64,000 nt of DNA from Acidobacteriota bacterium. GTDB lineage: Bacteria > Acidobacteriota > Polarisedimenticolia > J045. Made by a program: the position numbers and the translations under genes. The DNA lies in the NCBI GenBank assembly GCA_025456425.1, contig JALOKP010000008.1, positions 552 to 64,551 on the forward strand, in the 5' to 3' direction. The notes below the pieces were generated by a model that was not told the DNA's origin, ran no database searches, and was given only the letters and a program-made list of their open reading frames with translations. Below, piece by piece: positions 8,569 to 29,939 of this stretch (position 1 is the first letter of the stretch; each line of letters starts with the position of its first letter).

Positions 8569-10085
8569 GCCCGGTCCGGTGCGCGCGGCGCGGCGTCGTG
8601 CTGCTTGCCGCCGTGCTCGCGGCGGCGCCGGCCGGGCCCGCGCGTGCGGGCGAGGAGAGCGCCGCCGCGCTCGAGCGCCGCTACCTTGCGGCGCGCGATC
8701 TCGAGGCGACCGGGCAGGCCGGGCAGGCGCGCGAGATGTACCTGGACGTGGCGGCGGTCGAGTCCGGCAACCCGCGGCGCGACGACGCGCTGCTGGGCCT
8801 GGCCCGGATCGCGCTGGGTACGGGCGGCCCCGGCGAGCCGCTGCCGACCGCGATCGCCGCCGCCGCGCTGGTGGAAGGCCGCGACCGGCTGACCGCGATC
8901 GTGGACGGACCGCCCGGCTCCGACGCCGCGCCGGAAGCAGCCTACTGGCTGGCGCTGCTGAAGCTCGACCCGCGCGCGCCGTTCTTCGACCCGGCCGCCG
9001 CGCAGGCCGACCTGACGGCCTACCCGCGGCTCTACCCCGGTTCCGCCTACCGCCGCGGCGCGATGCTGCGCGCCTCGGAGTTGCTGGTCGAGAGCGGCCG
9101 CGCCGAGCCCGCGCGCCAGATGGCGTTCCGCGTGCTCGCCGACGGGGCCGAGGGAGCGGAAGCGGCGGCCGCGTGGCGGGTGATGGGCGAGGCCGAGGCG
9201 CGCGCGGGGCGGCCGCAGGCGGCGCTGACCGCGCTCGGCCGGAGCACCCAGCTCGAGCCCAACGGGCCCCAGGCCCGGCTGGCCGAGGACCTCGCGACGG
9301 TCGTCGACCGCGTCGCCTTCCCGCGCGGGTCCGGCGCGCGCTACACGGCGGCCGGCGAGCCGATCGCGCTGCCGGGCCGCGTGGCCGACCTTGCCGTGCA
9401 GGCCGACGGCACGCTCCTCGCGCTCTTCGAGCGGGACGGCCAGCTGGTCTCGATCGGACGCGACGGGAAGACACTGAGCCGCGTGGCCGCGGCCGGCGCG
9501 ACGGCGGTTGCAGTCGACCGCTCCGGGCGCACGTGGCTCGCCGCCGCCGGCCGGCTCTCGGTCGGCGACACCGGCACCGGCATTCCGCTCCCCGCCAAGT
9601 CGCAGGTCGTTTCGATCGCGCCGACGGGACCGCTTGCGGCCTGGATCGCTGACGCCGACGGCCGCCGGGTGGTACGCCTCAACGGCGACGGCACGATCGC
9701 CGTCACCGCTCCGCTCCCGCCGCGTGCCGACCCCGTGAGCGTCGCCGCCGCGGGAGACGGCGGGGTCTGGGTGCTCGACGCGCGCGGCCCGACGCTGCTG
9801 CTGTTCGGCCCGGGTGGTGAGCAGCGCGCCACGGTCGCGCTGTCCGAGCGGGCCGAGAAGCCGGTCGACCTGTGCTCGGACGCGCTGGGCAACGCGTACC
9901 TGCTGGCCGCCCGGCCGGTCGCGGTCCTCGTGTTCGACCCGGCGGGCCGACCGCTGCTGACGTGGGAGCCGGGCACGGCCGATCCAGGCAAGGAGTTCCC
10001 GCGCCCGGCCCTGCTCGCGGTCGACCGGGCGGGGGAGTTCGCGCTTTACGACGCCCGGCTGGAGAGCGCGCGATGGTGGCGTTGA
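8562..10085 (+). CDS. Secreted TPR-like / beta-propeller (NHL-like) repeat protein
   Basis: ATG at 8562 overlaps the kinase stop. Signal peptide (VVLLAAVLAAAPAGPARA). N-terminal helical repeats, C-terminal repeated DRSGRTWLA / GDGGVWVLD / ALGNAYLL strands. Confidence 0.5.
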   Translation: MVSPVRCARRGVVLLAAVLAAAPAGPARAGEESAAALERRYLAARDLEATGQAGQAREMYLDVAAVESGNPRRDDALLGLARIALGTGGPGEPLPTAIAAAALVEGRDRLTAIVDGPPGSDAAPEAAYWLALLKLDPRAPFFDPAAAQADLTAYPRLYPGSAYRRGAMLRASELLVESGRAEPARQMAFRVLADGAEGAEAAAAWRVMGEAEARAGRPQAALTALGRSTQLEPNGPQARLAEDLATVVDRVAFPRGSGARYTAAGEPIALPGRVADLAVQADGTLLALFERDGQLVSIGRDGKTLSRVAAAGATAVAVDRSGRTWLAAAGRLSVGDTGTGIPLPAKSQVVSIAPTGPLAAWIADADGRRVVRLNGDGTIAVTAPLPPRADPVSVAAAGDGGVWVLDARGPTLLLFGPGGEQRATVALSERAEKPVDLCSDALGNAYLLAARPVAVLVFDPAGRPLLTWEPGTADPGKEFPRPALLAVDRAGEFALYDARLESARWWR

Positions 10086-17073: not shown

Positions 17074-17802
17074 ATGAACCAGCCCTCCGCCCAGGCCAAC
17101 ATCACCGTCCCGGTCGTCGTCGGCGGGCTGATCGGCGCCGCGCTCGGGGTCGTTCCGCCCTGCTGCTGCTGTTGCCTCAACACGGTTCTGGCCGGCGCGA
17201 TCGCCGGAGCGATGTTCGCGCGCGCAGCGGGTTTCGTTCCGATCGAGCGAGGCGCCATGATCGGGTCCCTGGCGGGGGCGGTGGCGGGCGCGGGAGGTGC
17301 CGTGACGGACTCCCTGCGCCAGGCGGCCTTCCGGCCCTGGTTCGAGGGCTGGGTCGACCAGGTGGCGCGCTACGGCGACTCGGAGGCGCGCGAAATGCTG
17401 GAGCAGCTTGGCGCGTGGGAGGGCGGGGGCGGTCCGGGCTGGTTCCTGGCCGGGCTGGCCTTCAACATCGCCATCGGCGCGGTTCTCGGCGCGCTGGGCG
17501 GAATGCTCGGTGTGGCCCTGATGCGGAAGCAGCCGCCGCCAGCCCCGTCGTATCCTCCTCCGCTGCCCCCCCAGCCGCCGACCTACCCCCCGCCGCCCGG
17601 GGCCCCGGTGGCTGCGCCGGCGGCACCCTGGCCGCCCGCCCCACCGCCGCCGGCCGACCCGTCCGGCTCCGCGGGACCGCCTCCGCCCGCACCGCCGGCC
17701 CAGGAATCGCGGATCGCGGGGGGCGGGTCGGCTGCCCCGTGGCCGCCGGCCGGGGGAACACCGGACAACGCCGACCCATCGGGGGGCGGCCGCGCGGGCT
17801 GA
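17074..17802 (+). CDS. Membrane protein with a CCCCC run and a Pro-rich C-terminal tail
   Basis: ATG at 17074 (residue 49 of ORF 16930..17802). Gly/Ala-rich TM segments. PPCCCCCLN at 17161-17175. C-terminal approximately 90 aa is Pro-rich. Confidence 0.5.
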   Translation: MNQPSAQANITVPVVVGGLIGAALGVVPPCCCCCLNTVLAGAIAGAMFARAAGFVPIERGAMIGSLAGAVAGAGGAVTDSLRQAAFRPWFEGWVDQVARYGDSEAREMLEQLGAWEGGGGPGWFLAGLAFNIAIGAVLGALGGMLGVALMRKQPPPAPSYPPPLPPQPPTYPPPPGAPVAAPAAPWPPAPPPPADPSGSAGPPPPAPPAQESRIAGGGSAAPWPPAGGTPDNADPSGGGRAG

Positions 17803-19087
17803 GCGGGGAGGGGCTGGCGGAAGCGTGTGGGAATCGAACCCACCCGTGACCGGTGCGACCGACCACGCAACGGTTTTGAAGACCGCGGGAGGCACCAGCC
17901 CCCGTGCGCGCATTCTGCGCGTTCGGCGGACTGTTAGTGGACTGTTTCCGCTCGGCGCTGTCTCCGAGCCGCGCGACCAGCGCCGGGTCAACCGCCCCCC
18001 CGCGGCGGCGAAAGTAGCGCTCGGTCGTGAGCACGGTCGAATGCCCGAGCCAGTCCCGCAGGACCTTCGTCGGGACCCCGGCCTCGGCGCACCAGGTCCC
18101 GAACCGATGCCGCAGCCCGTGGAGCCGTGACGTCTCCCGCGGGCGGCCGGGCTCCCCGGTCGGCTCGACCGGCCGGAGCGCCGGCGTCGCCGCCCGCCGG
18201 GCGTCCGCCCAAACCCGCTCGGCCATGTACTGCAACCCCTCAACCGTCCCGATCCCGGCGACGATCTGCCCCACGCGCCCGGGCCAGGAGACCCCCTCCA
18301 GCGCCCGCGCGAGCCGCTCCGTCAGGATCGGGACCGTCCGCGCCCGCCCCGACTTCGGGCGGTCTGTCTCGTCTCGCACCGCGACGTGGATCGCCCCGTG
18401 CGGGGAGAGCCCCTCGACCGGGCCGAGCGTCAGATCCTCCCACCGGAGCCGGAGGATCTCCCCGCGGCGCAGCCCAGCGTCGCCGGCCAGCAGGATCACG
18501 ACCAGCCGGCGCGGGTCGGCGCTCGCCCGGGCGGCCTCGATCAGCCGGGAGTATTCCGCTTCCGAGACCGCCTCCGGCTCGCTCCGCTGCACCAGCCGCG
18601 GGCGCTTGACCTTGCAGGGCGGCGCCGCGACGTGCTCCTGCTCCTCGGCGAGCTGGAACAACTGCGACAGCCGGTCGAGCTGCTTGCGGATGCTGGACGT
18701 CGAGAGCCCGGCGTCGCGCATCGTCTTGACCCACGCGGACACGTCCGCCTTGCGGATGCGGGCGACGGGACGCGGCCCCCAATACTCGACCAGCCGGGCC
18801 AGCTCCCACTTGTACCCGCGCAACGTCGCCGCGGTGTAGACGCGATCCGTGCCGGCCTCCCAATGCTCGACCAGACGATCCGCCAGCGCCTTGACGGTGA
18901 TCGCCCGCGCCGGCGTCAGGTCCACCGGCAGCCCGGCCGCGGCGCGGTGCTTCTTCTTCCGCTCGGACGCGAGCCAGTCTTCCGCCTTGCGGGCGCTCGG
19001 GAACGACTTCGCGCGGCGCTTGCCGGCGATGGTGATATAGGCCCGGTGCCCCGTTTTCTCCTGGCGGATGAACCCGTCGCCGCGCAT
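17462..19087 (-). CDS. int: Tyrosine recombinase (phage integrase); the ORF runs through attL and the tRNA
   Basis: Catalytic signature: AGLRRGEILRLRW (Arg), HGLRHRFGTW (H-x-x-R), GHSTVLTTERY (His, Tyr358). First in-frame stop is at 17462, 183 codons after the Tyr. Confidence 0.9.
   Translation of the reverse strand: MRGDGFIRQEKTGHRAYITIAGKRRAKSFPSARKAEDWLASERKKKHRAAAGLPVDLTPARAITVKALADRLVEHWEAGTDRVYTAATLRGYKWELARLVEYWGPRPVARIRKADVSAWVKTMRDAGLSTSSIRKQLDRLSQLFQLAEEQEHVAAPPCKVKRPRLVQRSEPEAVSEAEYSRLIEAARASADPRRLVVILLAGDAGLRRGEILRLRWEDLTLGPVEGLSPHGAIHVAVRDETDRPKSGRARTVPILTERLARALEGVSWPGRVGQIVAGIGTVEGLQYMAERVWADARRAATPALRPVEPTGEPGRPRETSRLHGLRHRFGTWCAEAGVPTKVLRDWLGHSTVLTTERYFRRRGGAVDPALVARLGDSAERKQSTNSPPNAQNARTGAGASRGLQNRCVVGRTGHGWVRFPHASASPSPLSPRGRPPMGRRCPVFPRPAATGQPTRPPRSAIPGPAVRAEAVPRSRTGRPAAVGRAARVPPAQPPGPRAAGGRSAAGGAAEEDTTGLAAAASASGPHRAFRPARREPRRWRC
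17815..17913 (-). tRNA. selC: tRNA-Sec (anticodon UCA), attL hybrid copy: nt 5-99 native-like, nt 1-4 replaced by element sequence
   Basis: Minus-strand features: 6-bp D stem GGGGGC/GCCTCC with 4-nt loop TGGT; anticodon loop CTTCAAA (TCA = complement of 17877-17879); 9-bp extra arm GTGGTCGGT-CGC-ACCGGTCAC; T arm GTGGG-TTCGATT-CCCAC; 3' ACGCTTCC-G-CCA ending at 17815. Confidence 0.8.
17873..17909. repeat. attL core: 37-bp direct repeat identical to 29126..29162
   Basis: GTTTTGAAGACCGCGGGAGGCACCAGCCCCCGTGCGC occurs exactly twice. Flanking bases differ on both sides. Confidence 0.9.
17925..17946 (+). promoter_or_regulatory. Candidate integrase arm-type sites (left arm): GGCGGACTGTT-A-GTGGACTGTT
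   Basis: Tandem 10-11-bp repeat 16-37 bp inside attL. The same motif pair occurs at 29013..29034 in the same orientation. Confidence 0.5.
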
Positions 19088-19275
19088 CAGTCCCCCTCGG
19101 CCGAGGCCGCCGCCTGGCGCACCGCCTTGAAGAGCCGGTCCGTGGCGTCCTCATAGGGCCCCTCGTCCGAATGCAGGATGCATCCGATCAGGTCGTCGAC
19201 GGCGCACAGGATCCGCGCTTGCACCTCGGGGTCGGCTGCGGCCAGGAGCGGGGGGAGATTCGTGGTCGTGGTCAT
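19087..19275 (-). CDS. Hypothetical small protein upstream of int (62 aa)
   Basis: ATG at 19275 (MTTTTNLPPLLAAADPEV...). Its stop overlaps the int start by 1 nt. The longer 131-aa ORF N-terminus looks non-coding. Confidence 0.4.
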   Translation of the reverse strand: MTTTTNLPPLLAAADPEVQARILCAVDDLIGCILHSDEGPYEDATDRLFKAVRQAAASAEGD

Positions 19276-19489
19276 GCTGCCCTCCGTCTGCGTGCGCGGA
19301 AGGGACACGACGGCTGAACCGGCACGCGCCGGTGGCTTCGCCCCGAAGGTGTCTGCGGTAGACTTTCGGACAGCTCGCATCGTGGTACCCCCACGCTTGC
19401 GGGTCAGGGCCCGTCGTCCGGTTCGCGCCGGCGGCGGGCCCGCCTTCGTGGGAGGGATACGCCCGTCGCCGGCAAGAGTCAAGCCCAGC

Positions 19490-19753
19490 CTACTGCAGCC
19501 CCTCCGGCCCGCGGACCAGGCTCTGCTCGAGCAGGGCCTCCGAGATGAACGGGGGCTTCCCGATGCGCACGACCAGCCCCTCGTCGCGCAACCGATCGAA
19601 CAGCGCCGCGACGATGGCCGCCGTCTCGGCCCAGGTCCGCCCCTGCCGGGCGCACTCCTCGAGCACCGCCGGGAGCGTCTGCGAGAAGATCTTCGCCCCG
19701 GCGCGATTGAGCTCCTCCAGCGCCTCGGCGTCGCTCTTGCCCCGGCCGCTCAC
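19490..19753 (-). CDS. Hypothetical element protein (87 aa)
   Basis: 4-nt overlap with the upstream TMP-like gene. Balanced composition (MSGRGKSDAEALEELNRAGAKIFSQTLPAVLEE...). Confidence 0.5.
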   Translation of the reverse strand: MSGRGKSDAEALEELNRAGAKIFSQTLPAVLEECARQGRTWAETAAIVAALFDRLRDEGLVVRIGKPPFISEALLEQSLVRGPEGLQ

Positions 19754-21813
19754 CGCTGGAACCTCGCGGCGTCGCTGCGCTCGACCTGCTTCAGCTTCCG
19801 GCCCAGCGTCCGGAGCGAGTCGGAGTCGATGAAGGCGCCGTGGACGTGGATCACCTGGCCGGTCGACTGGTCATGCGTCACGCTGCTGCTGTTATTGTTC
19901 GTGATCGACTGCGTCGCCGCCGCCAGCCGCTTCGGGACCGGCCCGATCCGCAGCCCATCCGCGAACCCCCGCGACGTCATCTCGATGTAGTCCTGCGCCC
20001 AGCGCCGGCCGCCGTGGTAGGCCATCCGGTCGTTCACCGGGTCGTCGAACCCCTTCCCGGCGCTTCCCGGGTTGGCCGACTTGATCTTCTGGATCTGGAC
20101 CAGGCCGGCGGCGATCATCAGCGCCGCGGCAGCGTGCCCCCACGGCGTCATGCCGTAGGTCTTGTAGGTCTGCAGCACGGCCAGCGCCGTATTGATCACC
20201 GCCTCGGCGATCGCGAGCGCCTTGTTCTGGCCGAAGATCCCGGACAGGGCGCCGGCCACCACCTGCGCGTACTGCAGCCAGAACTCGGCCCGCTCCTTCG
20301 TGCTCATCTTCTCCAGGTCAGTCATCGCCGCCTGGTGGGACCGGGACCGGGCCTCGATCGCGTTGTTCCACTTGGTGCGGATCGCAGCCGTGTCCGCTCC
20401 GAGCGCCTCGGCCGCCGAGATCTCCCGATCGCGCTGCTCCTCGAGCGCCTGGATCTCGGCCTCGGCGATCTTGTCCAGCGTCTCCTTGACGATCGCAACC
20501 TTCTCGTCGGAGATGTACCAGGCCCCCTCGGTCTGCATCTCCAAGGACTGATTGAGCAGCTCGGCCTCAGACTCCAGCGCCGCAGCCTGCGCGTCGCGCT
20601 CGACCTTCCACCGCTCGAGTACCTTCTGGGTGACCTCGTCGGCGTACCCGACGATGAGATCGTGAACGGCCTTCTCCCCGGCCAGCCGATCGGCTCGCAC
20701 CTTCTCCGCAGCCTTGGCCGCTCGACCCAGGCTGGCCGCCGCCCGGTCCCCGGTCCGCTCCAGCTCCTCGGCCGCCTTCTTCTGGGCCGCCGCCGCCGCC
20801 TCCGCGTCTTTCTCCGCCCGCTTCAGAACCTCGCCCAGCTTCTTGCCGATGCCCTCCATCTCATCGGTCAGGCCACGAGCTGCCATCGCCTGCTTGAATG
20901 CCTCGACGTTCTTCGTGACGTCCTCGACGGAATCGGCGGCCCCGGACCAGATGTCCGAAATGGTCTTGGCGCTGTCGGTGATGTCCTTGCCGAGCAACGC
21001 CCGCCCGAGATTCCAGAACGCGACGCCCACGACGTTGGTCACCGCGACCACCCGCTCGAGCGCCCAGACCAGACCGCCGATCAGATACGCCGAGAGCTTC
21101 CAGATTCCCTCGCCCAGCTGGCCGGCCTGGTCTCCCAGCCCGTCCCACTGCGACTTGAGGAACGTGACCCCGTTGCCCGCCTTCTCCTGCTCGGCCAGGT
21201 ACTCCTCGAGCCGGCCGCTCAGCAGGTCGATCACCTTCGCCTGGTCGGCCGCCGTCTCGCCCAGGGCCTGCACGTCGAGCCCGAGCTTCCGCGCTGCCTG
21301 AGACCAGCGGTTCCCGAACAGGTCGGCGACCAGGTCGGCCGCCTCGCTCATCTCGATCACCTGGGACCGGCTGACCGCGACGGCCAGCGAGACCGCCCCC
21401 ATCGCCGCCTCGAGGTCCCCGGTCAGGTTCAGGAACTTCTGGAACGCCGGCAGCGTCTCGTCGTCGACGATCCCCGTCCCGAGCGCGATCTGCTGGAAGA
21501 ACGCCTGCAGCCGCGGCAGCGCCTCATCGGTGTCGATGCCGAACTTCCGCATCGCTTCACCGACCGCCCGCATCCGCTTCTCGAACTCGATCCAGTCCTG
21601 CGTCGCCTTCGTCAGGAACCCGAAGACGGCAAGCGGCGCCAGGTAGGTGCGGAGGGTAGCGCCGACGAACTCCCCGGCCTTCCCGAGACCCACCATCGCG
21701 GCCCGGGTGGTGTTGACCTCGGACTCCAGCTTCTTCAGCCGGGCCGAGGCGTCGAGCAGACCCTTCTCCTTCAGGATGAACTCGACGATTCCCTGGACGC
21801 GCGGATCAGCCAT
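19750..21813 (-). CDS. Phage tail tape-measure-like protein
   Basis: 687 aa. The N-terminal region resembles the TMP core (ATQDWIEFEKRMRAVGEAM...). Long Ala/Glu/Lys coiled coil, then Gly/Ala hydrophobic segments near the C-terminus (VVAGALSGIFGQNKALAIAEAVINTALAVL). Confidence 0.55.
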   Translation of the reverse strand: MADPRVQGIVEFILKEKGLLDASARLKKLESEVNTTRAAMVGLGKAGEFVGATLRTYLAPLAVFGFLTKATQDWIEFEKRMRAVGEAMRKFGIDTDEALPRLQAFFQQIALGTGIVDDETLPAFQKFLNLTGDLEAAMGAVSLAVAVSRSQVIEMSEAADLVADLFGNRWSQAARKLGLDVQALGETAADQAKVIDLLSGRLEEYLAEQEKAGNGVTFLKSQWDGLGDQAGQLGEGIWKLSAYLIGGLVWALERVVAVTNVVGVAFWNLGRALLGKDITDSAKTISDIWSGAADSVEDVTKNVEAFKQAMAARGLTDEMEGIGKKLGEVLKRAEKDAEAAAAAQKKAAEELERTGDRAAASLGRAAKAAEKVRADRLAGEKAVHDLIVGYADEVTQKVLERWKVERDAQAAALESEAELLNQSLEMQTEGAWYISDEKVAIVKETLDKIAEAEIQALEEQRDREISAAEALGADTAAIRTKWNNAIEARSRSHQAAMTDLEKMSTKERAEFWLQYAQVVAGALSGIFGQNKALAIAEAVINTALAVLQTYKTYGMTPWGHAAAALMIAAGLVQIQKIKSANPGSAGKGFDDPVNDRMAYHGGRRWAQDYIEMTSRGFADGLRIGPVPKRLAAATQSITNNNSSSVTHDQSTGQVIHVHGAFIDSDSLRTLGRKLKQVERSDAARFQR

Positions 21814-22408
21814 CGGTCAATCTCCTGTCTTGTAAGGGTTGATGCGCCTGGTCCGCGGCCCGGAGCTCCTCGGCCAGGGCCCGGTGCTCGGCCAGCAGCC
21901 GGTCGCGCTCGGAGGAGAGCAGGGACGGGTTTCGCAGCGCGTTCCACAGGTCGACCATCCGGGCGTGCCGCGGGTCGGGTGCCGGCCGCTCGCGCCGCGG
22001 GCGGCTGGGCGGCGGCGGGGCGGGCGGCTCCGGCTCACCGTAGAGCTCGCGCTTCAGCCGCTCGGCCGCGGCGAGCTCCGTCCGCCGGACCACTTCCCGG
22101 GAGAGCTGGAAGACGACGGCGGTCTCCTCAAGACTCCAGCCGGCGAAGCGCAGCGACACGACCGCGACCTCGCGCAGGGAGAGCTCGCGCATCGCGACGG
22201 CCAGCTTACGGCGTCGCTCGCGCTCCGCGGCCTCCAGCTCCGGCGACGGGCCCGACGACGGCTGGAGCTCGCCCAGCGTCGCGCCGTCCGGGTCGTCGTC
22301 ACTCGCCGGCGCGTCCAGGCTGGTCGTCTGCTGGTAGCGGTACAGCGGGTCGCCGAGGATCGTGCGGATCTGCTCGGCCCGCTCGGCGAGGGTGCGTTTC
22401 GTGCTCAT
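21806..22408 (-). CDS. Sigma70 region-4-like HTH protein (possible late regulator)
   Basis: ATG at 22408 (MSTKRTLAERAEQ...). HTH segment LSLREVAVVSLRFAGWSLEETAVVFQLSREVVRRTELAAAERLKREL. No region 2 seen. Confidence 0.5.
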   Translation of the reverse strand: MSTKRTLAERAEQIRTILGDPLYRYQQTTSLDAPASDDDPDGATLGELQPSSGPSPELEAAERERRRKLAVAMRELSLREVAVVSLRFAGWSLEETAVVFQLSREVVRRTELAAAERLKRELYGEPEPPAPPPPSRPRRERPAPDPRHARMVDLWNALRNPSLLSSERDRLLAEHRALAEELRAADQAHQPLQDRRLTDG

Positions 22409-22460
22409 GCGATCCGCTCCCTCCAGACGGCGCTTTCGGGCGCGACGATCTCCGCGCGGG

Positions 22461-22652
22461 TCACGCCGCCGTCCCCCCGCGCCGGCGCACGTCGGCCGGC
22501 AGCGTCGCCGGATCGACCTCCTCGGCGTCGCCGCGCTCGATGAAGACCTCGGCGATCGCACGCGGCAGCCGCTCGATGACGCCCACGTCCACGCCCACGA
22601 CGGCACGCCGCCACCGGATCCACGCGGCCCACAACTTCGCCGGCGGGCTCAT
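22461..22652 (-). CDS. Hypothetical element protein (63 aa)
   Basis: ATGA overlap with the upstream ORF. More protein-like composition than the overlapping 22405..22632 ORF. Confidence 0.35.
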   Translation of the reverse strand: MSPPAKLWAAWIRWRRAVVGVDVGVIERLPRAIAEVFIERGDAEEVDPATLPADVRRRGGTAA

Positions 22653-22942
22653 GCCCGGACCTCGGGCCCCGGGGGCCGCGCGACCGCCACCGGGAGGACG
22701 CCGAACTGCATCAGCCGGTGGAAGTAGCCGACCAGCACCGCCAGCGCGGCCACGTCGCCGCCGATCGCGCGGCCGGATTCGAGCAGGCGAGGAATCTCCG
22801 CCAGGATCAGCCCGGCGCAGCGTTCGGCCTCGGCCCTCTGTTCGTCGTTCACGTCGCCTCCGATCGGTGAATCGTCCCCGCGGGGGTGAACGAGGGTCGC
22901 GCCTTCCGGCGTGATGACCCCCAGGGCGGCCCGCGGGGACAC
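22649..22942 (-). CDS. Hypothetical element protein (97 aa)
   Basis: ORF in the same operon orientation, 4-nt overlap with the next gene. No family recognised. Confidence 0.4.
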   Translation of the reverse strand: MSPRAALGVITPEGATLVHPRGDDSPIGGDVNDEQRAEAERCAGLILAEIPRLLESGRAIGGDVAALAVLVGYFHRLMQFGVLPVAVARPPGPEVRA

Positions 22943-22958
22943 GCTACCGCCCCCTCGA

Positions 22959-23498
22959 CTACAGCCCGGCCGTCAGCCGCTCGACCACGCGCAGCAGCTC
23001 GGCCGGCTCGGTCGCGACGTAGACCAGCGCCCGGGCCTCGCGCAGTCGGGCCTCGACCTCGATCACCCGCCGGCGCTGCGCCGGCCGGTCGGAGTCCTCG
23101 GCCAGCGGCACCCCACGCCGGGCCCGGTCCAGCTCGGAGACCAGCGCGTCGATCGCCGCCGCCAGCGGGTCCGGCGTCAGCCGCTCCAGCTCGCGCCGGG
23201 CCGCCTCGACGCCACCGAGCGCCAGGTGCTCCCGGCCGGCGTGGTCGCGCTCCCGGGCGTCCAACTCCTCCCGGGCCTTCGCCAGCTCGACCGCGAGCTT
23301 GACCACCCGCTCCCGGGCCGCGACCGCCGGCGCGACCGAGGCCGCCTCCGCCAGCGCCCACGCCCGGGTGCGCTCCTCGACTTGCGCCGCCAGCTTCCGG
23401 CGCCGGTCCGCGTTCTGCTGCTGCTGCAACGCCCACAGCTCGCGATGCTGCTCCGCCGTCAGCTCGCGGACGTTGACCTTGACTGCTGCTGCCTGCAT
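22959..23498 (-). CDS. Coiled-coil protein downstream of the capsid gene (scaffold/decoration-like)
   Basis: 179 aa, rich in heptad-like Glu/Arg/Ala/Leu stretches. Starts 10 nt after the capsid stop. Confidence 0.45.
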   Translation of the reverse strand: MQAAAVKVNVRELTAEQHRELWALQQQQNADRRRKLAAQVEERTRAWALAEAASVAPAVAARERVVKLAVELAKAREELDARERDHAGREHLALGGVEAARRELERLTPDPLAAAIDALVSELDRARRGVPLAEDSDRPAQRRRVIEVEARLREARALVYVATEPAELLRVVERLTAGL

Positions 23499-23508
23499 CG
23501 GTGACCTC

Positions 23509-24834
23509 CTAGGAGCGCGTGGCGAGCGTGACGAAACTGCTCAGCGTGTCGGAGCCGACCGCCGGCGTGACCGCGGATGCGAGCCACGGCTGGCCGTCCA
23601 CCGCGACGGTGAACCGGAAGGCCGTCTCCGCGTAGATAAACCGGACGTGCATGGACAGGTCGTTCTTGGCCGCGCCCAGACCCAGCGCGTAGGACTGCGG
23701 GTCCCACAGGCTCAGATCGCCGACCGTGCCGAGCGTCTGCATTCGGTCGGACCAGATGATCCGGCGGCCCAGCAGCGTCTCGGTGGCCGGATCGAACTGC
23801 CCGGTCAACTTCCAGATTTGCGGCGCCGTGCTCGGATGCGCGAGCCAGACTGCGGTCGGCCAGCACTCCGGCAAGAGCCGGGCGCACATCTTCGCGGTGT
23901 TGTCGCTGGTGATCGTCGCCGCCGCCTGGCCGCCTTCCTTCGACACCGTCACCAGGGCGCTGCTGTTCATCAGTCCGAGCGGCTGGCCGGCCCCCGTGCC
24001 GGCGATGATCGCCGCGCTGAGCTTCGCGTCGATCACCCGCGCGGCCGCGGCCGTCAGGAACTCCCCGATGCCCGCACCCCCGTTGGCGATCATCCTGTCC
24101 GTGCAGTAGACCAGCGCGACCAACTGCTGCGGCTCCAGCTTGATCTGCCGGAACTTCGGCTTGCTCTCGGTGATCGCATCGGCTTCCGAGATCCAATAGG
24201 ACCGCAGCCCGCCGTACAGGGAACCGTCGACGCGCGAGGTCTCGGCGTTCGCGTTCAACGTCAGGGTGTCGCCGGTCACGGTGTACTGGTCGCACAGCGC
24301 GGCCAGCGAGGTCGCGCGGGCGTTGACCGCATCCCAGATGGCCGAGCTGAACTGCGGCGCAACCAGGAACCCGCCGTCGCTCGGGATCTGCCGGCCGAGC
24401 CCGGTCGGGTTGGCGGCCAGCAGCAGCCGCGGGTCGAGCGTCGGCTTGACCGCCGCGGCCATCACCCCGGAGAAAAACGCGTCCGCCGACGGCCAGTCCC
24501 CGACCTCCTGCGCCCGCTGCGCCATCGGCGTTCGCCGCGGCTTCGGGGCCGGCGCCGCCGCCGGCAGCGTCGTCAACCGAGCCTCGATCCGTTCGAAGAT
24601 GCTCTGCTGCAGGTCGGCGTCGTACCGGCCGGCCGCGGACAGCACCAGCTCCGCCGCCTGCCGAGCGATGGCGGCCGAGCCGCCCCCTCGCGCTGCGACC
24701 CGTCCCGCTGCCTGTTCGATCTGCTCATCCGTGATGCTCGTCATCCTGCTCATGATTCGGTCCCTCTCTGCGCCCTCGGGCGCGGTGATCGGGGCCGTCT
24801 CTCGATTGCGCAGGCACCCCGGGTTGGTGCTCAT
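23509..24834 (-). CDS. HK97-family phage major capsid protein
   Basis: The family call is by eye from segments such as RQIKLEPQQLVALVYCTDRMIANGG, AIIAGTGAGQPLGLMN and RFTVAVDG. The N-terminal approximately 100 aa is helical and delta-domain-like. Alternative start at 24753 has a better SD (GAGGG). Confidence 0.85.
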   Translation of the reverse strand: MSTNPGCLRNRETAPITAPEGAERDRIMSRMTSITDEQIEQAAGRVAARGGGSAAIARQAAELVLSAAGRYDADLQQSIFERIEARLTTLPAAAPAPKPRRTPMAQRAQEVGDWPSADAFFSGVMAAAVKPTLDPRLLLAANPTGLGRQIPSDGGFLVAPQFSSAIWDAVNARATSLAALCDQYTVTGDTLTLNANAETSRVDGSLYGGLRSYWISEADAITESKPKFRQIKLEPQQLVALVYCTDRMIANGGAGIGEFLTAAAARVIDAKLSAAIIAGTGAGQPLGLMNSSALVTVSKEGGQAAATITSDNTAKMCARLLPECWPTAVWLAHPSTAPQIWKLTGQFDPATETLLGRRIIWSDRMQTLGTVGDLSLWDPQSYALGLGAAKNDLSMHVRFIYAETAFRFTVAVDGQPWLASAVTPAVGSDTLSSFVTLATRS

Positions 24835-24835
24835 G

Positions 24836-25255
24836 TCAGCGAACCAAAGACGCGATCGTCGCCTCGCGCTCGCTCATCGGATCGACCCGCTTCGGCTCGG
24901 GCAGCCGCGCCCGGCCGGCAGGGCTCAAGCCGAGCGCCGTCGCGTACGCCAGGACCACGCGGTGCTCGGCCCGGATCGCCGCCCGGTTGGGCCGCGCCGC
25001 CCCCGTCTGCCGGCGCAGCTCGGCCACCGCCAGCGCGTACCCGCACAGGACCTCGACCGACTCGGCCCCAGCCCGTCCGACCAGCGCCGGGAGCGTGGCG
25101 CGATAGACCTCTTGGGCCTCTGGGGGCAACCAGGAAGGCGCAGTCGTGGGGAGCGGGCGATCGCTCGGCGAGATCGGCTCGACCTTGCTGGCGAGCCCGT
25201 GGGGGCCACAACGGGCCGCGGTGTGCGACTTGGCGATCGGGCCTCGGGTGCTCAT
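24836..25255 (-). CDS. Phage terminase small subunit, P27-like
   Basis: ATG at 25255 preceded by GGAGG. The layout MSTRGPIAKSH...PSWLPPEAQEVYRATLPALVGRAGAESVEVLCGYALAVAELRR resembles P27-family TerS. Placed directly upstream of the capsid gene. Confidence 0.65.
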   Translation of the reverse strand: MSTRGPIAKSHTAARCGPHGLASKVEPISPSDRPLPTTAPSWLPPEAQEVYRATLPALVGRAGAESVEVLCGYALAVAELRRQTGAARPNRAAIRAEHRVVLAYATALGLSPAGRARLPEPKRVDPMSEREATIASLVR

Positions 25256-25425
25256 CGGGGACCTCCTGTCAGGGCCGAATCCGAACTTCCGTGCGCGTGC
25301 AAATGGGGCGCCGGCCGTTGCTCGCGGACACGCCCGGAAAAAACGACCCCCCCCAGGGCCGGGCAGCCGGGCACCGCGCAGGGGCGCAGGACGCCGGTCA
25401 CGGGGTCGGCCTCGGCGCAGGGGAC

Positions 25426-25540
25426 GGGTGCAACTTCGGGGAGGGTGCAGGGGTGCAACGGGTGCAGCCCCTATATAGGGGCCGCTGCACCCGTCCGTTA
25501 CGGGTGCAATGCACGGGTGCTGCACCCGTTGCACGGGTCC
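25426..25540. repeat. Iteron-like array of GGGTGCA/TGCACCC heptamers around a GCCCCTATATAGGGGC palindrome (candidate ori or operator)
   Basis: Forward copies start at 25426, 25443, 25451, 25460, 25502 and 25515 (variant). Inverted copies at 25486 and 25521. 16-bp perfect palindrome with a TATATA core at 25467-25482. Confidence 0.6.
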
Positions 25541-27604
25541 TCACTTCGGCACCCGGTAAGCCAGCGGGCGCTTGGTCTTGCCCGACTTGTCTGCGTCCGT
25601 CGCGGGGCGGAATGTCCCGTCCACGTCGCAAACGAACAGCTCTAGCTCGGCCCGGTGGGCGGCAATGTAGCCGTCGACGGTTCGTTCCTTCTTACCGAGC
25701 CGCGCCGCCAAGTCGGCCTTGGTGAGCGGGACATCGCTGGCGCCGAGGGTTGTAAGCAGTCCATCCGCGGGGCGCTTGCGCCGCGTGAGCTTGGCGGCCT
25801 CGTCGCCCGATAGTTCGCGCTGGTAGACCAGGGCAACGGGCGTTTCGTGGTCCGGCTTCCCGAGCGCCACCGCGGTTTGGTCGGGCCACAGGAAGACTAG
25901 GTGTTTGCCCGAGCCGCGGCGCCGGCCGACCCGCTGCTTGTTGGTCGAGACGACGAACGCCGACCCGCCGGCGGGAAGGTGAGGCACGTCGCCCGCCGGG
26001 CGTAGGAAGATCACCGCGTCCGAGATCCGGCGGAAGGCGTCCGAGCCGTGAATCAGCCCGGATTCGTCCGTCGTCGGGTCGTAAGCATAGGCCAGCTTGT
26101 TTGTATGGTGGTTCAGCCCGAGCCCGCAGGGGCCGCCCGCGGCCGCCCGCAAGGGTGCCATGTGCTCGCGGTAGAACCGCGTCACGTCCTCGGCGTCCTT
26201 GAACGACTTGATATCGCTGGTCGCCTGCACCGTATCGGCAAGGATCAGCTCGGGGCGGAAGTCGGCGACCAGCCGGAACAAGCGGGCGCGAGCCACGGGG
26301 TCGCCGAACCAGAACGCGGGGTCGGCCACGATTCGCAGGTTGTCGGCAAGCAGCGCGGGGTCCAGATCGTTGCCGGCAAACAGCATTTCCGCCCGGTCGG
26401 CCAGGTCGCCCGGATCGTCTTCCGCGAAGATTCCGAGCACCCGGACGGGCCGTGCGATCTGCCACTCGCCGCAGACCCGGCCGCCCACGGCGGCCTTGGC
26501 GCCCAGCTCCAGCGAGAACCACGTCTTGCCGGTCTCGGACGGCGCGACGATCAGGGTGCGCCCGTGCAGCCGCACCCCGGGCAACAGCAGCTCAGGGACG
26601 GACCGCTCGCGGTGCGGCAGGGTCGCCGCGGTGAAGTAGGGCAGGGGCTCGACCGTCTCGGGGTCCGGCGCTGCCGGCCGCCCGAATTTCGCGACGGCCG
26701 ATTCGGCCAGGTTCCGCAGCTCGGCGTCCGTCTTCCGCTCGCCGGGGAGCGCGTCGGCCCACGCGCGGAGCGCGGGCGCGATCCCCGCCACGGGCACGCC
26801 GGCGGACGCCAGCGCGACCGCCTTGCCCCGGAGCCAGTCGTGGCGGGACTGACCTTCGCGCGGGCCCCAGTCGCCGCTCGCGGGCACGTAGGGCGCCTCG
26901 CGGGGAGCGGCGCCGGCGGTGCCGCTCTCCGGCAACAGGTCGAAGTCGGACGGGTTGTAGCGGACTGCGTCCTCGTCCACGATCTGCGCCATCGGCCGGT
27001 CGGGCGTCTTGTGGTTCCGGGTGCCCGGCACGCGGAGGATGCGAGCCAGGTCCGCGGTGTTGTCTACCGTCCACCCGCGGCGCTTCGCGCGGTCGCGCAG
27101 GAACGCCTGCACGCGCTGAACGACCGCCTTCGCGGCCGCCCGATCGGCTTCTGACTCGATCGTCCACGGCTCGCGGTAGAGCCACCAGACGTGCAGACCG
27201 AACCCCGACGAGACGATCAGCGAAGGCACCGGGAGCCCGTCCAGCAGCGTGAGCGCGTCCCCGATCGTCGGCGGCAGCGCCGGGCATTTGTGCGCCGTCG
27301 CGTGCGCCACGTCCACGTCAGCCCAGATCCCGGGGACCGCCAAGACGGACGATTCGCTCCCGCGGCCCTCGGACGGGACCGTGGCGTGCGAACAGCACCC
27401 GAGATAGACGTCACCGTGCGCCGATTCGGCTGCCGCGTGGCGGGCGAGCGCGTCCAGGTCGCCGCCGGCGAACCAGCTCGTTGCCGGCGTGCGATCCCTG
27501 AACCGGGTGACGGCCAGGTGCCCGGGGGCGCCATCCGGCCAGATCGCGGTAAGGAACGCGCGGGCCTCTTCGGCCGGCATCTTGCGGACCGCGGGCGCGG
27601 TCAC
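25541..27604 (-). CDS. Bifunctional primase-polymerase / RecA-like helicase replication protein
   Basis: N-terminal prim-pol motifs (SSGFGLHVWWL, RVPGTRNHK). Central P-loop LIVAPSETGKTWFSLELGA and Walker B-like ELILADTV. C-terminal winged-helix-like tail. Confidence 0.8.
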   Translation of the reverse strand: MTAPAVRKMPAEEARAFLTAIWPDGAPGHLAVTRFRDRTPATSWFAGGDLDALARHAAAESAHGDVYLGCCSHATVPSEGRGSESSVLAVPGIWADVDVAHATAHKCPALPPTIGDALTLLDGLPVPSLIVSSGFGLHVWWLYREPWTIESEADRAAAKAVVQRVQAFLRDRAKRRGWTVDNTADLARILRVPGTRNHKTPDRPMAQIVDEDAVRYNPSDFDLLPESGTAGAAPREAPYVPASGDWGPREGQSRHDWLRGKAVALASAGVPVAGIAPALRAWADALPGERKTDAELRNLAESAVAKFGRPAAPDPETVEPLPYFTAATLPHRERSVPELLLPGVRLHGRTLIVAPSETGKTWFSLELGAKAAVGGRVCGEWQIARPVRVLGIFAEDDPGDLADRAEMLFAGNDLDPALLADNLRIVADPAFWFGDPVARARLFRLVADFRPELILADTVQATSDIKSFKDAEDVTRFYREHMAPLRAAAGGPCGLGLNHHTNKLAYAYDPTTDESGLIHGSDAFRRISDAVIFLRPAGDVPHLPAGGSAFVVSTNKQRVGRRRGSGKHLVFLWPDQTAVALGKPDHETPVALVYQRELSGDEAAKLTRRKRPADGLLTTLGASDVPLTKADLAARLGKKERTVDGYIAAHRAELELFVCDVDGTFRPATDADKSGKTKRPLAYRVPK

Positions 27605-27840
27605 CGCCGGGCCCTTTCGCCCTCGGCCAGCGCCAGGTCGAGCTGCCGCGACTTGTCAGGGTCCCAAGGTTCCGCGGTCGGATCGTAGCCCGCGCCCAGC
27701 AGCGCCAGGTCGAGAGCCGCGCGGTGAATCTCGGCCAGCGCGGAGCCGCGATCGCTGCCGTTCTGGTAGGCGACCGCGAGCTGTAGGACCGCGGCGATTG
27801 CTCGGCGCCGGGCCGCTTCCCACGACGGGGGGCCGCTCAC
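27601..27840 (-). CDS. Hypothetical element protein (79 aa)
   Basis: 4-nt overlaps with both neighbours. No family recognised. Confidence 0.45.
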   Translation of the reverse strand: MSGPPSWEAARRRAIAAVLQLAVAYQNGSDRGSALAEIHRAALDLALLGAGYDPTAEPWDPDKSRQLDLALAEGERARR

Positions 27841-28154
27841 GACTTCGCCGCCGCGAGCCCAACGCGGAACGCGGCCCGGGCCTCGGCGAGCTGCCGGCGG
27901 ACGCGACCGCGGGACCAGCCGAGCGCCGCCGCGACGTCTCGCTCGCTGGCCCCGTAGTAGTCGACGGCCAGCAGTAGGCGGCGCCGCTCGGCGGGCAGCT
28001 CGCGCAGCATGGCGCGGACCGCGCGGGCCAGCTCCAGCGCCGCGACCACTTCGTCCGGCTGCGGGGCTTGAACGTCAGCCGCGGCCGCGAGCGGCTCGGC
28101 GAAGCCCCACGATTCCAGCGCGTCGAGCTGGTCGAGCCGCACCGCCGCGCTCAC
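27837..28154 (-). CDS. Sigma70 region-4-only HTH protein
   Basis: 105 aa. LRELPAERRRLLLAVDYYGASERDVAAALGWSRGRVRRQLAEARAAF matches the ECF-type region 4 layout. No region 2. Confidence 0.55.
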   Translation of the reverse strand: MSAAVRLDQLDALESWGFAEPLAAAADVQAPQPDEVVAALELARAVRAMLRELPAERRRLLLAVDYYGASERDVAAALGWSRGRVRRQLAEARAAFRVGLAAAKS

Positions 28155-28780
28155 CGGGCGCCCCCCTTCGGCGGGATGTAGAACTGCGCGGGGAGCGCGG
28201 CCACGTCGGCTTCGCGGTAGAGGATCCGCCGGCCGAACTGGACGAAGCCGAGCAGCCCCTCGGCGCGGAGCCGGCGGAGCGTTCGGGTCGAGAGCCGCAG
28301 GGCCTCGGCCGCCTCGCGCTCCGTCAGCAGACCGCCGGCCGCGAACCCGAACGCGGGCAGCGCGAGCGCCGCGCCAGCGCCGAGGAAGCCGCCGACCAGG
28401 AGAGCCGCGAAGACGATCAGCAGCGCCGCCGCGACGGGCAGCGCTAGGGGAGGGTCGGCGCTACTTGGGCCGTCGTCTCCCGGGCTGCCGCCCGACGACG
28501 CGGCCCGCGATCGGTGAGGCTGCCGGCCGCCGATGCGGCGCGGCGCGGTCCGCCGGTCGAGCCGGACGGTCAAGCGCCGCGGGAGCCGGGCGTGGACGAT
28601 GCGCCGGGCCTCGCGCCGCGCCTTGCGCCGGATGGCGTGGCGCAGCTCGGGGCGTGTCATCAGGAAGGCGGACGGGCTGACGGTCTCAGCTTCGGGCGGG
28701 GCGGCCAACAGCGCCGCGACGATCCCGAGCGCTTGCTCGATCTGAGCTTGGGTCTGCTGACGGTCTCGTTTGCTGGTCAA
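28151..28780 (-). CDS. Excisionase-family (MerR-like HTH_17) DNA-binding protein with an internal TM hairpin
   Basis: C-terminal LLTEREAAEALRLSTRTLRRLRAEGLLGFVQFGRRILYREADV. It is preceded by two hydrophobic helices (LALPVAAALLIVFAALLVGGFLGAGAALALPAFGFAAGG) and a basic N-terminal region. Confidence 0.55.
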   Translation of the reverse strand: MTSKRDRQQTQAQIEQALGIVAALLAAPPEAETVSPSAFLMTRPELRHAIRRKARREARRIVHARLPRRLTVRLDRRTAPRRIGGRQPHRSRAASSGGSPGDDGPSSADPPLALPVAAALLIVFAALLVGGFLGAGAALALPAFGFAAGGLLTEREAAEALRLSTRTLRRLRAEGLLGFVQFGRRILYREADVAALPAQFYIPPKGGAR

Positions 28781-29012
28781 CTCGACTCCGATCCGCCGTG
28801 CGGGCTGTCAGGCCCTTACTCGAAGCGTACACCCGAACCGCGAAACTGGTACCGCGCCCCGGCGTGATATCGTTAGAGGGTCCGAATCCGCCGGGCAAAG
28901 TCCATGGGGTCGCGTCGTGTCAGCGGCGCGGCCCCGACCATTTCCGGCCGCCCCGAAAAGCGAAAGTCGCCCCCGGGCGCGAGGCTCCAGGGGCGACCGA
29001 TAATGTCAAGTC

Positions 29013-29034
29013 GGTGGACTGTTGGCGGACTGTT
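29013..29034 (+). promoter_or_regulatory. Candidate integrase arm-type sites (right arm): GGTGGACTGTT-GGCGGACTGTT
   Basis: Tandem repeat matching 17925..17946, 92-113 bp inside attR. Confidence 0.5.
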
Positions 29035-29125
29035 CTCCCGAGGCTTTTGTCTTCCTATGCCTCTGGTGTCCGTTGCAAGTCCTTGACTGGCCAGCGCTGG
29101 CCGCAGCAGTCCGCAACCGGGAATC

Positions 29126-29162
29126 GTTTTGAAGACCGCGGGAGGCACCAGCCCCCGTGCGC
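29126..29162. repeat. attR core: 37-bp direct repeat identical to 17873..17909
   Basis: Exact second copy of the 37-mer. Confidence 0.9.
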
Positions 29163-29166
29163 TTCC
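29126..29166 (-). tRNA. selC: Orphan 5' fragment of tRNA-Sec (nt 1-41) with the native upstream region
   Basis: The minus strand reads GGAAGCGCAC-GGGGGCTGGTGCCTCC-C-GCGGTCTTCAAAAC and then diverges into element DNA. GGAAGCG pairs perfectly with the 3' strand CGCTTCC found at 17819-17825. Confidence 0.8.
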
Positions 29167-29363
29167 GTGGGCCAACCACAGGAGGAATCATTGTACCCAC
29201 GGTTTCCGGCCCGGGAGGCCGCGCGCCGGGGGGACTGGACCCGGACCCCTCGCCCGGGTTAGATTCTCCCGCCCATCGCGTGGATGGGGGGACAGGGCCC
29301 GGCACCTGCCGGGACAGTGAAGGCCCTTCGGGGCGAGGCAGCGACCGGGTCCAACGTCTGATC

Positions 29364-29939
29364 ATGGGTAAGCGACTCTTCGTAGGGAACCTCCCGTACA
29401 GTGCCACCGCGGACGACCTGCGGGCGCTGTTCGCGGAGCTCGGTGAAGTCACCGACGTCCACATCGTGATCGACCGCGAGACCCAGCGTCCGCGCGGTTT
29501 CGCCTTCGTCTCGTACGCTTCGGACGAGGTCGCGGCCAAGGCGGCGCAGGAGATGAACGGCCGCTCGTTCGGCGGCCGGCCGCTCGTGGTGAACGAGGCG
29601 CGCGAGCGCGGCGAGGGCCCGCCCCCGGGTGCGAGGCCGTCCGGCCCGCGTCCCGGCGGCTTCGGCGACCGACCCCCGCGCCCCGGCGGCTTCGGCGACC
29701 GCCCGCCGCGCCCGCCCGGCAGCGGCCCCGGCGGGCCGCGTCCCGGCGGTTTCCGCGGCCCCCGCGGCGCGCCGATGCCGCCGCCCGAGCCGCTGCCGAC
29801 GGAAGAGCGCCGGCCGCGCACCGCGCCCAAGAAGAAGGTCGACTACGACCGCGACCGCACCCCTTCCACCCGGCCCCGCGAGGACGAGAAGGAGAAGGGC
29901 GGCGGGAGCTGGCGGCAGTGGATCGACGACGACGAGTAG
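29364..29939 (+). CDS. RRM-domain RNA-binding protein with a Gly/Arg/Pro-rich tail
   Basis: RNP2 LFVGNL and RNP1 RGFAFVSY, followed by GGFGDRPPRP repeats and an acidic end. Confidence 0.85.
   Translation: MGKRLFVGNLPYSATADDLRALFAELGEVTDVHIVIDRETQRPRGFAFVSYASDEVAAKAAQEMNGRSFGGRPLVVNEARERGEGPPPGARPSGPRPGGFGDRPPRPGGFGDRPPRPPGSGPGGPRPGGFRGPRGAPMPPPEPLPTEERRPRTAPKKKVDYDRDRTPSTRPREDEKEKGGGSWRQWIDDDE
29652..29711 (+). repeat. 30-bp tandem repeat (2 copies) encoding PGGFGDRPPR
   Basis: CCCGGCGGCTTCGGCGACCG(A/C)CC(C/G)CCGCGC occurs twice in tandem inside the RRM gene tail. Confidence 0.6.

Follow-up and report, generated by a model that had tools for sequence, protein, structure and literature searches.

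The locus described here raises the question of what a set of phage-type genes that is too small for a phage may be: what is left of a prophage, or an element that travels with the help of a complete phage. It lies in a stretch of 64,000 nucleotides (the window) of contig JALOKP010000008.1 (GenBank assembly GCA_025456425.1), annotated at NCBI as a metagenome-assembled genome (MAG) of an "Acidobacteria bacterium". An element of 11,253 bp is bounded there by two exact copies of a 37-nt direct repeat (17873-17909 and 29126-29162, spacing 11,253 nt), and the flanks of the repeats show no similarity outside the 37-nt core. A first-pass annotation, made by a model from the letters of the sequence, had proposed exact att repeats around an 11.25-kb element and an uncultured host lineage of high guanine plus cytosine (GC) content, and both proposals are borne out. 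The element is probably an integrated helper-dependent satellite that is similar to the phage-inducible chromosomal islands (PICIs), carries its own major capsid protein (MCP) and tape measure protein (TMP), and belongs to a small, undescribed family. Its modules are an integrase with att sites in selC, an excisionase-type helix-turn-helix (HTH) protein, replication genes, a late module of terS, MCP and sigr4b, and a variable cargo slot.

The open reading frames (ORFs) of the element were searched against Pfam, PHROGs and NCBIfam, and those of the cargo slot also with PADLOC. Among them, the three family databases gave no TerL, portal, protease, connector, tail tube, baseplate, holin or lysin, in agreement with the earlier remark that the large terminase, portal, protease, tail and lysis genes are missing. 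Since TerL, portal, tail tube and lysis genes were not found, the element is no autonomous tailed phage, in line with the earlier conclusion. The ORFs that remain unassigned, in which such proteins might have been hidden, are merely 62-179 aa long and gave no portal, protease, TerL or tail-tube match; only the replicase, the TMP, the MCP and the integrase exceed 400 aa. The element has 14 genes, all on the minus strand according to the GC content at codon positions (GC3 frame analysis), and independent JGI gene calls on the same contig (Ga0392393_0000099, sample 3300037408) are on the minus strand too. Neighbouring genes overlap by 1-8 nt at seven of the 13 junctions and about 91% of the element is coding, so the single-strand, mostly overlapping array described at first is real. 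At about 75% GC of the window, raw ORF lists are crowded with shadow frames and genes were chosen by codon-position GC; plus-strand ORFs such as 19840-22914 and 23299-25725 were rejected as shadow ORFs by the GC3/GC2 pattern and the strand of the homologues. The GC content is 0.72 in the element and 0.75 in its flanks.

The relatives of the element carry much of the argument (designations such as L010 are our handles for loci). The sigr4b gene (21806-22408, minus strand) encodes sigma-70 regions 3.2-4 and a conserved C-terminal extension (PF04545, Sigma70_r4, 1.3e-5; phrog_351 2.3e-10), and its alignment with sigma factors is confined to their C-terminal half. An exhaustive HMMER search of 1.84 billion proteins yielded, at E<=1e-10, only 8 representatives of the family. 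At L009, one of the six other loci where a homologue was found, no MCP is recognised; the remaining five are small elements without TerL or portal in which the homologue lies 1-3 genes downstream of an MCP gene. Their common layout is HTH_17, replication, iterons, (HNH) TerS, MCP, small ORFs, sigma region-4 protein, variable cargo and int, and it is repeated in at least five other elements (L010, L014, L015, L016 and L017/L018) of about 68-74% GC.

L010, which was found via the replicase, is a contig of 9,546 bp whose first 20 nt (1-20) are identical to its last 20 nt (9527-9546), and it is likely to be a circular or terminally redundant molecule; a tRNA fragment was searched for at its junction and none was found. 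Its genes are a hydrophobic-tail protein, HTH_17, a homologue of orf79 (58% identical), a primase-polymerase (prim-pol)/AAA_25 protein and iterons, then HNH, TerS (phrog_83), a distant MCP (phrog_10 3e-53), a 67-aa ORF and sigr4b (54%), and at the end a Cys-rich secreted protein, a membrane protein and int (38%). In place of the HNH ORF (3614-4048, PF01844 2.6e-11) the gene caller had reported a 315-aa ORF on the opposite strand. L014, found via MCP matches, has HTH_17, a different replication gene, TerS (39%), MCP (53%), an S49 protease, a helical 151-aa protein, a homologue of orf63, a sigma region-4 protein (44%), cargo and int. L015 shares the C-terminus of the MCP (59%), cc179 (67%), orf97 (60%) and sigr4b (47%) and is without TMP; L016 combines an L010-type MCP with a divergent sigr4b; and L017/L018 has HTH_17, a DUF3102 protein, TerS, MCP, sigr4b and small cargo ORFs, in this order. 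A variant locus, L009/L011 (CAVPDB010000012.1, 9452-17730, an Acidobacteriota MAG), shares the replicase C-terminus (85%) and a sigma region-4 gene, has a 340-aa protein and a Bbp16-type head protein in place of TerS and a Phage_capsid MCP, and is flanked by an insertion sequence and an MmeI-type restriction gene; an integrase was not seen there.

Two members of the family are in genomes annotated as Acidobacteria/Acidobacteriota, and the family comes from high-GC, soil-type metagenomes. L014 and L018 are both from run ERR11561443, and L009 and L017 both from assembly ERZ25039459, a sign that a single community or genome may contain more than one such element. IMG/VR, scanned with the TMP, the prim-pol and the sigr4b alignment, yielded a distant phage (L005) at most; in the metagenome scans there was no match apart from a single weak, unrelated locus (L012), and in a genome scan none apart from the L009/L011 MAG.

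The structural genes point to complete phages. The MCP (23509-24744, minus strand, 411 aa) has the HK97 fold (PF05065 2.2e-31; TIGR01554 1.3e-38), as had been recognised at first; its start had been placed at 24834, which would give 441 aa, and is probably 24744. Its nearest relatives, 52-56% identical, are in the complete head modules of L002/L003, L004 and L013, where the gene order is TerS (Terminase_4), TerL, portal, ..., S49 protease, MCP. Compared with them the MCP is modified at two places. The element and L015 (2-376) lack about 16 residues behind position 314 ("IWKLT|GQFD", window ~23800-23805), which are kept in all of the 26 phage homologues and in L014; and the N-terminal ~85 residues, a helical domain, are unrelated to the delta-like domain of the phages. 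The AlphaFold2 (AF2) model is a standard HK97 fold (pLDDT 75, core >90) in which the deletion lies between helix 304-311 and strand 327-331; it may alter capsomer geometry and hence capsid size. The best Foldseek matches of the model include the capsids of RcGTA, of EcCI2 (9gyi), a capsid-forming PICI (cf-PICI), and of SaPIbov5 (PDB 7rwz), and encapsulins are also present.

TerS (24836-25255, minus strand, 139 aa) was identified by phrog_83 (2.3e-7) and is 39% identical to TerS of L014 and 37% to the Terminase_4 protein of phage L013. The earlier assignment as TerS therefore stands, whereas its P27-like character is indirect, through L013 and L014, the Pfam Terminase_4 match of the element's own protein being not significant. 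The earlier view of a third protein as tape-measure-like also stands: this protein of 687 aa (19750-21813, minus strand) gave no direct profile match, and yet it is 62% identical from end to end to a 686-aa protein (P0122) of phage fragment L006. With an L003 protein of 720 aa the identity is 42%, and this L003 protein itself matches phrog_1533 "tail length tape measure protein" (7.7e-9) and stands in the TMP position, after tail-tube-like and chaperone-sized genes. By this homology it is a genuine full-length TMP homologue. In L010, L014 and L015 the same position is occupied by other cargo and no TMP is found there, so that the TMP is an accessory and not a core gene of the family. Like the TMP, the element's genes are full length relative to their phage homologues. 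Judged from these similarities, MCP, TerS and TMP trace to one lineage of HK97-like siphophages of about 68-69% GC; in the phage-isolate collection all MCP matches are at or below 36% identity and the TMP has none.

Immediately after the MCP lies cc179 (22959-23498, minus strand), an all-helical protein that is 67% identical to that of L015 and has no family match. Its AF2 model contains a helix of 70 residues (pLDDT 78) and gave no significant fold match in BFVD, and it shows no sequence similarity to the 151-aa helical protein at the equivalent position of L014. From its position and shape cc179 might be guessed to be a scaffold or a size-determination factor. It is followed by orf97 (22649-22942, minus strand), which is 60% identical over its full length to the L015 protein and likewise without family match.

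A further link to phages is found in non-coding DNA. Just 5' of terS there is a conserved block (25293-25348, minus strand) with a G-rich stem, GTTTTTTC, and then CTGTCCGCGAGCAACGGC...CCCATTTGCACGC. This block of about 55 nt is 81-82% identical to sequences of satellite L017 (7404-7455) and of the complete phage L002 (3016-3071), both also just 5' of terS, and weaker versions occur in L013, L010 and L014. A terminator-like hairpin with T-run stands before it and would separate the early from the late operon. In L002 and L013 an uncalled HNH endonuclease ORF stands immediately 5' of terS; HNH beside terS is reportedly a hallmark of cos-type packaging in HK97-like phages, which marks the source phages as HK97-like phages with packaging of this type. 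In the phages and in L010 the block runs into the 3' end of the HNH ORF, but it is kept without an HNH ORF in the element, where no HNH-like translation was seen, and apparently in L017, where none was called upstream of terS. That it survives although the HNH ORF is gone argues for a cis-acting role, and most simply it would be a cos or packaging signal, or else a late promoter, common to the satellites and the helper lineage. The block shared by L002 and L017, together with MCP (52-56%), TerS (37%) and TMP (42-62%) that are closest to complete phage modules, links the element to a helper of this type.

The same likeness to phages could be taken to mean that the element is a defective prophage, that is, an L003/L013-like temperate siphophage that has lost TerL, portal, protease, connectors, tail tube, baseplate and lysis genes and is now inert or only excisable. 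The phage order of HNH, TerS, TerL, portal, ..., S49 protease, MCP, ..., tube, chaperone and TMP indeed becomes that of the element when blocks are taken out; moreover, the tail end of the HNH region persists without the ORF, the int gene has lost its stop codon and selC is damaged. Against this, at least five divergent elements, whose MCPs are non-orthologous, have this reduced layout in common. A single deletion history cannot account for it, and it has been conserved even though MCP and replication modules were swapped. Truncated genes are not found in the densely coding, overlapping array, the ORFs being full length, and the cargo slot between sigr4b and int varies. In addition, the element has its own replicase and origin, and sigr4b, cc179, orf97 and orf79, which are absent from the phages, are 47-67% conserved between elements. 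The MCP deletion is common to two satellites that are 59% identical and absent from the 26 phage homologues, and one relative, L010, has identical contig ends. Decay is consequently very unlikely. This agrees with the argument against simple decay in the first-pass annotation; the relatives, for which truncation from larger prophages had been a concern, are not remnants of that kind either.

Two other explanations accept that the element is no ruin. It could be an autonomous, tailless mini HK97 entity with procapsid- or encapsulin-like shells and no need of a helper, like the "twilight" genomes of ~8.9 kb with direct terminal repeats, which have MCP, scaffold, sigma factors, replication genes and integrase and are without portal, terminase and tail (10.1101/2025.06.18.659913). 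The gene list is very close, and encapsulins are among the Foldseek matches of the MCP. TerS in the element, L010, L014 and L017 and HNH in L010, however, are sensible only with a TerL-portal packaging machine, a full-length TMP implies tails, and the MCP matches Phage_capsid/TIGR01554, is nearest in sequence to complete tailed phages and has no encapsulin family reported among its Pfam and NCBIfam matches; this explanation is thus quite improbable, and TerS/HNH and TMP together favour helper dependence for at least this family. Alternatively, the element might stay unpackaged and serve as a defence or interference island, its variant MCP, TerS and TMP acting as dominant-negative decoys against L003-like phages. 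Satellites and prophages often block tail or capsid assembly of other phages, as the Tai systems (PMC11364771) and Rta of PLE11 do, the three structural genes come from one phage lineage and the variable cargo slot resembles a defence hotspot. Yet PADLOC gave nothing for the cargo ORFs and no match apart from the HTH domain, and the dedicated replicase, the origin, TerS and the candidate packaging site speak for mobilisation. Interference is also compatible with satellite transfer, both coexisting in known satellites, and as the sole function of the element it is highly unlikely.

A helper-dependent satellite therefore remains the probable explanation, and its life cycle can be outlined as follows. 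An HK97-like cos siphophage (with HNH, TerS, TerL, portal, S49 protease and MCP, such as L002, L003 and L013) would infect the host or be induced, the element would be excised by Int and the HTH_17 protein and it would replicate from its own origin. The late operon would then be switched on, and the block 5' of terS and/or the sigma region-4 protein may tie it to the late program of the helper. The modified MCP, with its new N-terminal domain and 16-aa deletion, would assemble on the portal and be matured by the protease of the helper into capsids for ~11 kb of DNA, perhaps with the participation of cc179; P4, of 11.6 kb, uses a T=4 capsid. TerS would steer the TerL and HNH of the helper to the packaging site of the satellite, and the element's TMP would replace that of the helper in tails otherwise built by the helper, as in PLE11. 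Such a division of labour, in which the satellite gives MCP, TerS with a cos-like block and, in this member, TMP and the helper gives portal, protease, TerL, HNH and the other tail parts, would be an undocumented one with a virion that is a three-way chimera. The half-sigma sigr4b (regions 3.2-4) may couple late transcription of satellite and helper, and a switch at int and selC would be added to this. This more far-reaching scheme, with the division of labour, the sigma coupling and the switch taken together, is put forward tentatively and is doubtful.

Several points weigh against the satellite interpretation. No helper phage was identified and the remaining 53 kb of the window are housekeeping. 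We know of no direct precedent for a satellite MCP that assembles on a foreign portal and with a foreign protease. Induction, packaging and particles are predictions from the genes, the sister elements are short metagenomic contigs without host or virome context, and at 20 bp the ends of L010 overlap by less than the k-1 that a k=31 assembler would give. The conserved block could be a cos site, a promoter or a relic of HNH coding sequence. Finally, a tail gene such as TMP is "forbidden" under the SatelliteFinder rules for PICIs and cf-PICIs (PMC10085698).

The early genes are consistent with a mobile element that replicates by itself. The first gene (28151-28780, minus strand) encodes an N-terminal domain, a hydrophobic segment and a C-terminal HTH_17/excisionase-type domain (PF12728 2.3e-9; phrog_66 3.9e-6; TIGR01764 2e-7), and also matches the MerR-like phrog_2474 (9.6e-5), Pfam MerR and MerR_1 being below their cut-offs; in L010 and L014 its parts are two overlapping ORFs. 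Next to it is an early sigma region-4 protein of 105 aa (27837-28154, minus strand), matched by PF08281 (Sigma70_r4_2, 2.6e-10) and, in its C-terminal part only, by TIGR02937. The HTH_17 protein and the presence of two sigma region-4 proteins had both been noticed from the translations, and the profiles agree. The small conserved orf79 (27601-27840, minus strand), 53-58% identical to an 86-aa ORF of L010 and without family match, lies upstream of the replicase.

The replicase (25541-27604, minus strand, 687 aa) combines a primase-polymerase with an AAA_25 (RepA/DnaB-like) helicase (phrog_2478 2.8e-18; PF13481 7.6e-14), the architecture proposed at first. Its C-terminal 443 aa are 85% identical to L009 and it is 46% identical to the prim-pol of L010, but the similarity is mosaic: a central segment of about 66 aa (residues 245-310, window ~26675-26872) is near-identical to L010 (2049-2283, 88% in DNA), while outside it the identity with L010 is about 35% and the N-terminal primase domain is of a type different from those of L009 and L010. 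This mosaic points to recent recombination among family members. An alignment of five prim-pol sequences was discarded as too divergent. Directly 3' of the replicase there is a candidate replication origin (25420-25540) with iterons, TGCACCCGT/ACGGGTGCA, in both orientations around CCCCTATATAGGGG. Five exact copies of TGCACCCGT are found within 25424-25529, besides degenerate ones, against 0.42 expected in the 64-kb window, so the iteron region suspected earlier is substantiated; L010 has different iterons at the same position (GACGACGGAACG, four copies).

The integration site is peculiar. At attL a hybrid tRNA-Sec gene, selC (17815-17915, minus strand), was found by ARAGORN and by Rfam (RF01852, 63.1 bits), and this is the sole Rfam match in the element. 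The attL core (17873-17909) is the exact 37 bp that correspond to tRNA-Sec positions ~5-41 including the anticodon loop, and consequently the element sits on the 5' side of selC and not on the usual 3' side; elements that integrate in tRNA genes are said normally to rebuild the gene from its 3' side. The attR core (29126-29162) is followed by the displaced 5' end of selC (GGAA) and a TACAAT -10-like box (29163-29200). In the hybrid gene the body and the 3' end are chromosomal and the first ~4-6 nt come from the element, so that its acceptor stem has A.C and T.T mismatches and a 2-nt insertion, whereas the reconstructed attB has a clean 7-bp acceptor stem with the TACAAT box upstream. With the mismatched stem and the separation from its TACAAT-containing upstream region, now at attR, selC may be inactivated or reliant on read-through from int. 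The att sites had been called intact: this is correct for the exact cores, but the 5' position and the damaged acceptor stem of the hybrid selC had gone unnoticed.

The tyrosine integrase (17462-19087, minus strand; PF00589 3e-15, PF02899 4.3e-7), correctly named before, needs a correction as well, for no stop codon interrupts its ORF ahead of the att core. Its catalytic domain reaches to about 17990; in the integrated state the ORF runs through selC to 17462 and gives 541 aa, and in the reconstructed circle it ends in the other arm after 444 aa. The L010 integrase, 38% identical, has a normal stop about 31 aa past the catalytic Tyr. Int is the last gene of a single co-directional array, with attP inside or just after the ORF. 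The loss of the stop codon could make a switch by which Int depends on the integration state, for example through non-stop mRNA decay after tRNA processing.

The remaining features are minor. The small conserved orf63 (22461-22652, minus strand) is 53% identical to a region of a 97-aa ORF of L014; orf87 (19490-19753, minus strand) overlaps the TMP gene by 4 nt on its stop side; and orf62 (19087-19275, minus strand), a JGI call, overlaps the int start by 1 nt. None of the three has a family match. The right arm (28781-29125) is non-coding, with no credible ORF and a GC content that falls to 0.65-0.67, and is the probable early promoter region and attP arm. A scan for sigma-70 promoters gave no match, and terminator-like sites are without overall enrichment. 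The other 53 kb of the window contain nuo and atp subunits, ribosomal protein L13, EF-Ts and similar housekeeping genes; a helper prophage inside the window was ruled out, every flanking gene sampled being of this kind. Just beyond attR, in the gene of an RRM_1 RNA-binding protein, there are three copies of a 30-nt repeat (29645-29764, 77-100% identical, start-to-start spacings 30 and 60 nt), which presumably encode a repetitive Gly/Arg-rich tail.

Among the described satellites the element comes near to several classes. It shares with PICIs (PMC10085698) a size of ~11 kb, an integrase with att in a tRNA gene, a small HTH protein as candidate regulator/excisionase, a capsid-related gene and terS, as well as a primase-helicase directly followed by an iteron origin and the absence of TerL, portal, connectors and lysis genes. 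Judged by function, the five PICI core components (integrase, regulator, primase-replicase, capsid gene and terS) can be recognised. The MCP is functionally analogous, and the HTH_17 protein, with its MerR-like PHROG match and Pfam MerR scores below cut-off, is a candidate for the regulator, which in the PICI definition is a homologue of alpA, merR or stl. The comparison is one of gene content and not of sequence. In the PICI SaPIbov5 a capsid homologue, Ccm, which serves size redirection, is likewise combined with a helper-type cos site. The element differs from PICIs in having a complete HK97 MCP instead of a small remodelling factor, a TMP and a sigma region-4 gene that is conserved in the family; moreover, int closes a co-directional array, with attP inside its ORF or directly behind it, and the host belongs to the Acidobacteriota. 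With cf-PICIs (10.1101/2022.09.08.507074) it shares an HK97 MCP of its own and TerS, its sisters adding HNH (L010) and protease (L014), and the capsid of the cf-PICI EcCI2 (9gyi) is among the best structural matches of its MCP; some cf-PICIs also carry putative tmp genes (PMC12987554, Extended Data Fig. 10). Unlike cf-PICIs, however, it is without the defining terL, portal, head-tail adaptor and connector and also without protease, and is therefore unable to build and fill a capsid alone.

Satellites with a TMP of their own have been described recently. The EPIPs of Mycolicibacterium aichiense (PMC12822802, preprint December 2025) are small and combine an integrase, an HTH protein and a scaffold-type protein with TerS, MCP and TMP; the heads of their particles are smaller and the tails altered. 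By their description they have a serine integrase and a head-to-tail adaptor and stopper, with no primase/replicase listed, whereas the element has a tyrosine integrase, a prim-pol/helicase with origin and sigma region-4 genes, and no adaptor or stopper match. In PLE11 of Vibrio cholerae (PMC12987554) it was shown experimentally that the TMP of the satellite is built into otherwise helper-made tails, and predicted tmp genes were noted in other satellites, including some cf-PICIs. PLEs differ in their lytic myovirus helper, a tail assembly chaperone, BhuB, Rta and the use of TcaP for capsids in place of an MCP, and they resemble the element neither in gene order nor in sequence. The first-pass statement that the gene set overlaps only partly with described classes is accordingly to be softened, since the five PICI core components are present by function, the regulator as a candidate (PMC10085698), and PLE11 (PMC12987554) and the EPIPs (PMC12822802) have their own TMP.

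Elements further away differ in more basic respects. The "twilight" mini HK97 genomes (10.1101/2025.06.18.659913) are of 5-11.6 kb, have MCP, a helical scaffold-like protein, sigma-like regulators, a replication gene and integrase/excisionase, and lack portal and tail tube as the element does; but terminase genes are lacking in them, encapsulin-type domains are over-represented and most were recovered from the human gut. The present family has TerS (sometimes with HNH), an MCP of the Phage_capsid type and a high-GC background of soil type. P4-like satellites are similar in their size of ~11 kb, integrase, primase-helicase, need of a helper for head and tail genes and possibly reciprocal transcriptional control. 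Homologues of Sid, Psu, Delta and Epsilon are not found in the element by PHROG and Pfam, its primase is of the prim-pol/AAA_25 and not the alpha type, and unlike P4 it has its own MCP, TerS and TMP. VEIMEs (PMC9618062) are without capsid genes, unlike the element.

Acidobacteriota are a major soil phylum whose phage biology is almost unexplored, and in a non-exhaustive search of the satellite literature no Acidobacteriota satellite was found named; the sigr4b signature offers a handle for more members and their helpers. The block common to satellites and a helper-type phage is a testable candidate for a packaging or regulatory site. If the element is functional, both the portal on which its capsid protein assembles and the protease that matures this protein must be foreign. 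The element also adds an independent case of a satellite-borne TMP gene and so lends support to the recent proposal of tail remodelling as a general strategy of satellites. In comparison with the known systems, then, the element and its relatives are probably a PICI-like satellite family with its own MCP, intermediate between PICIs and cf-PICIs.

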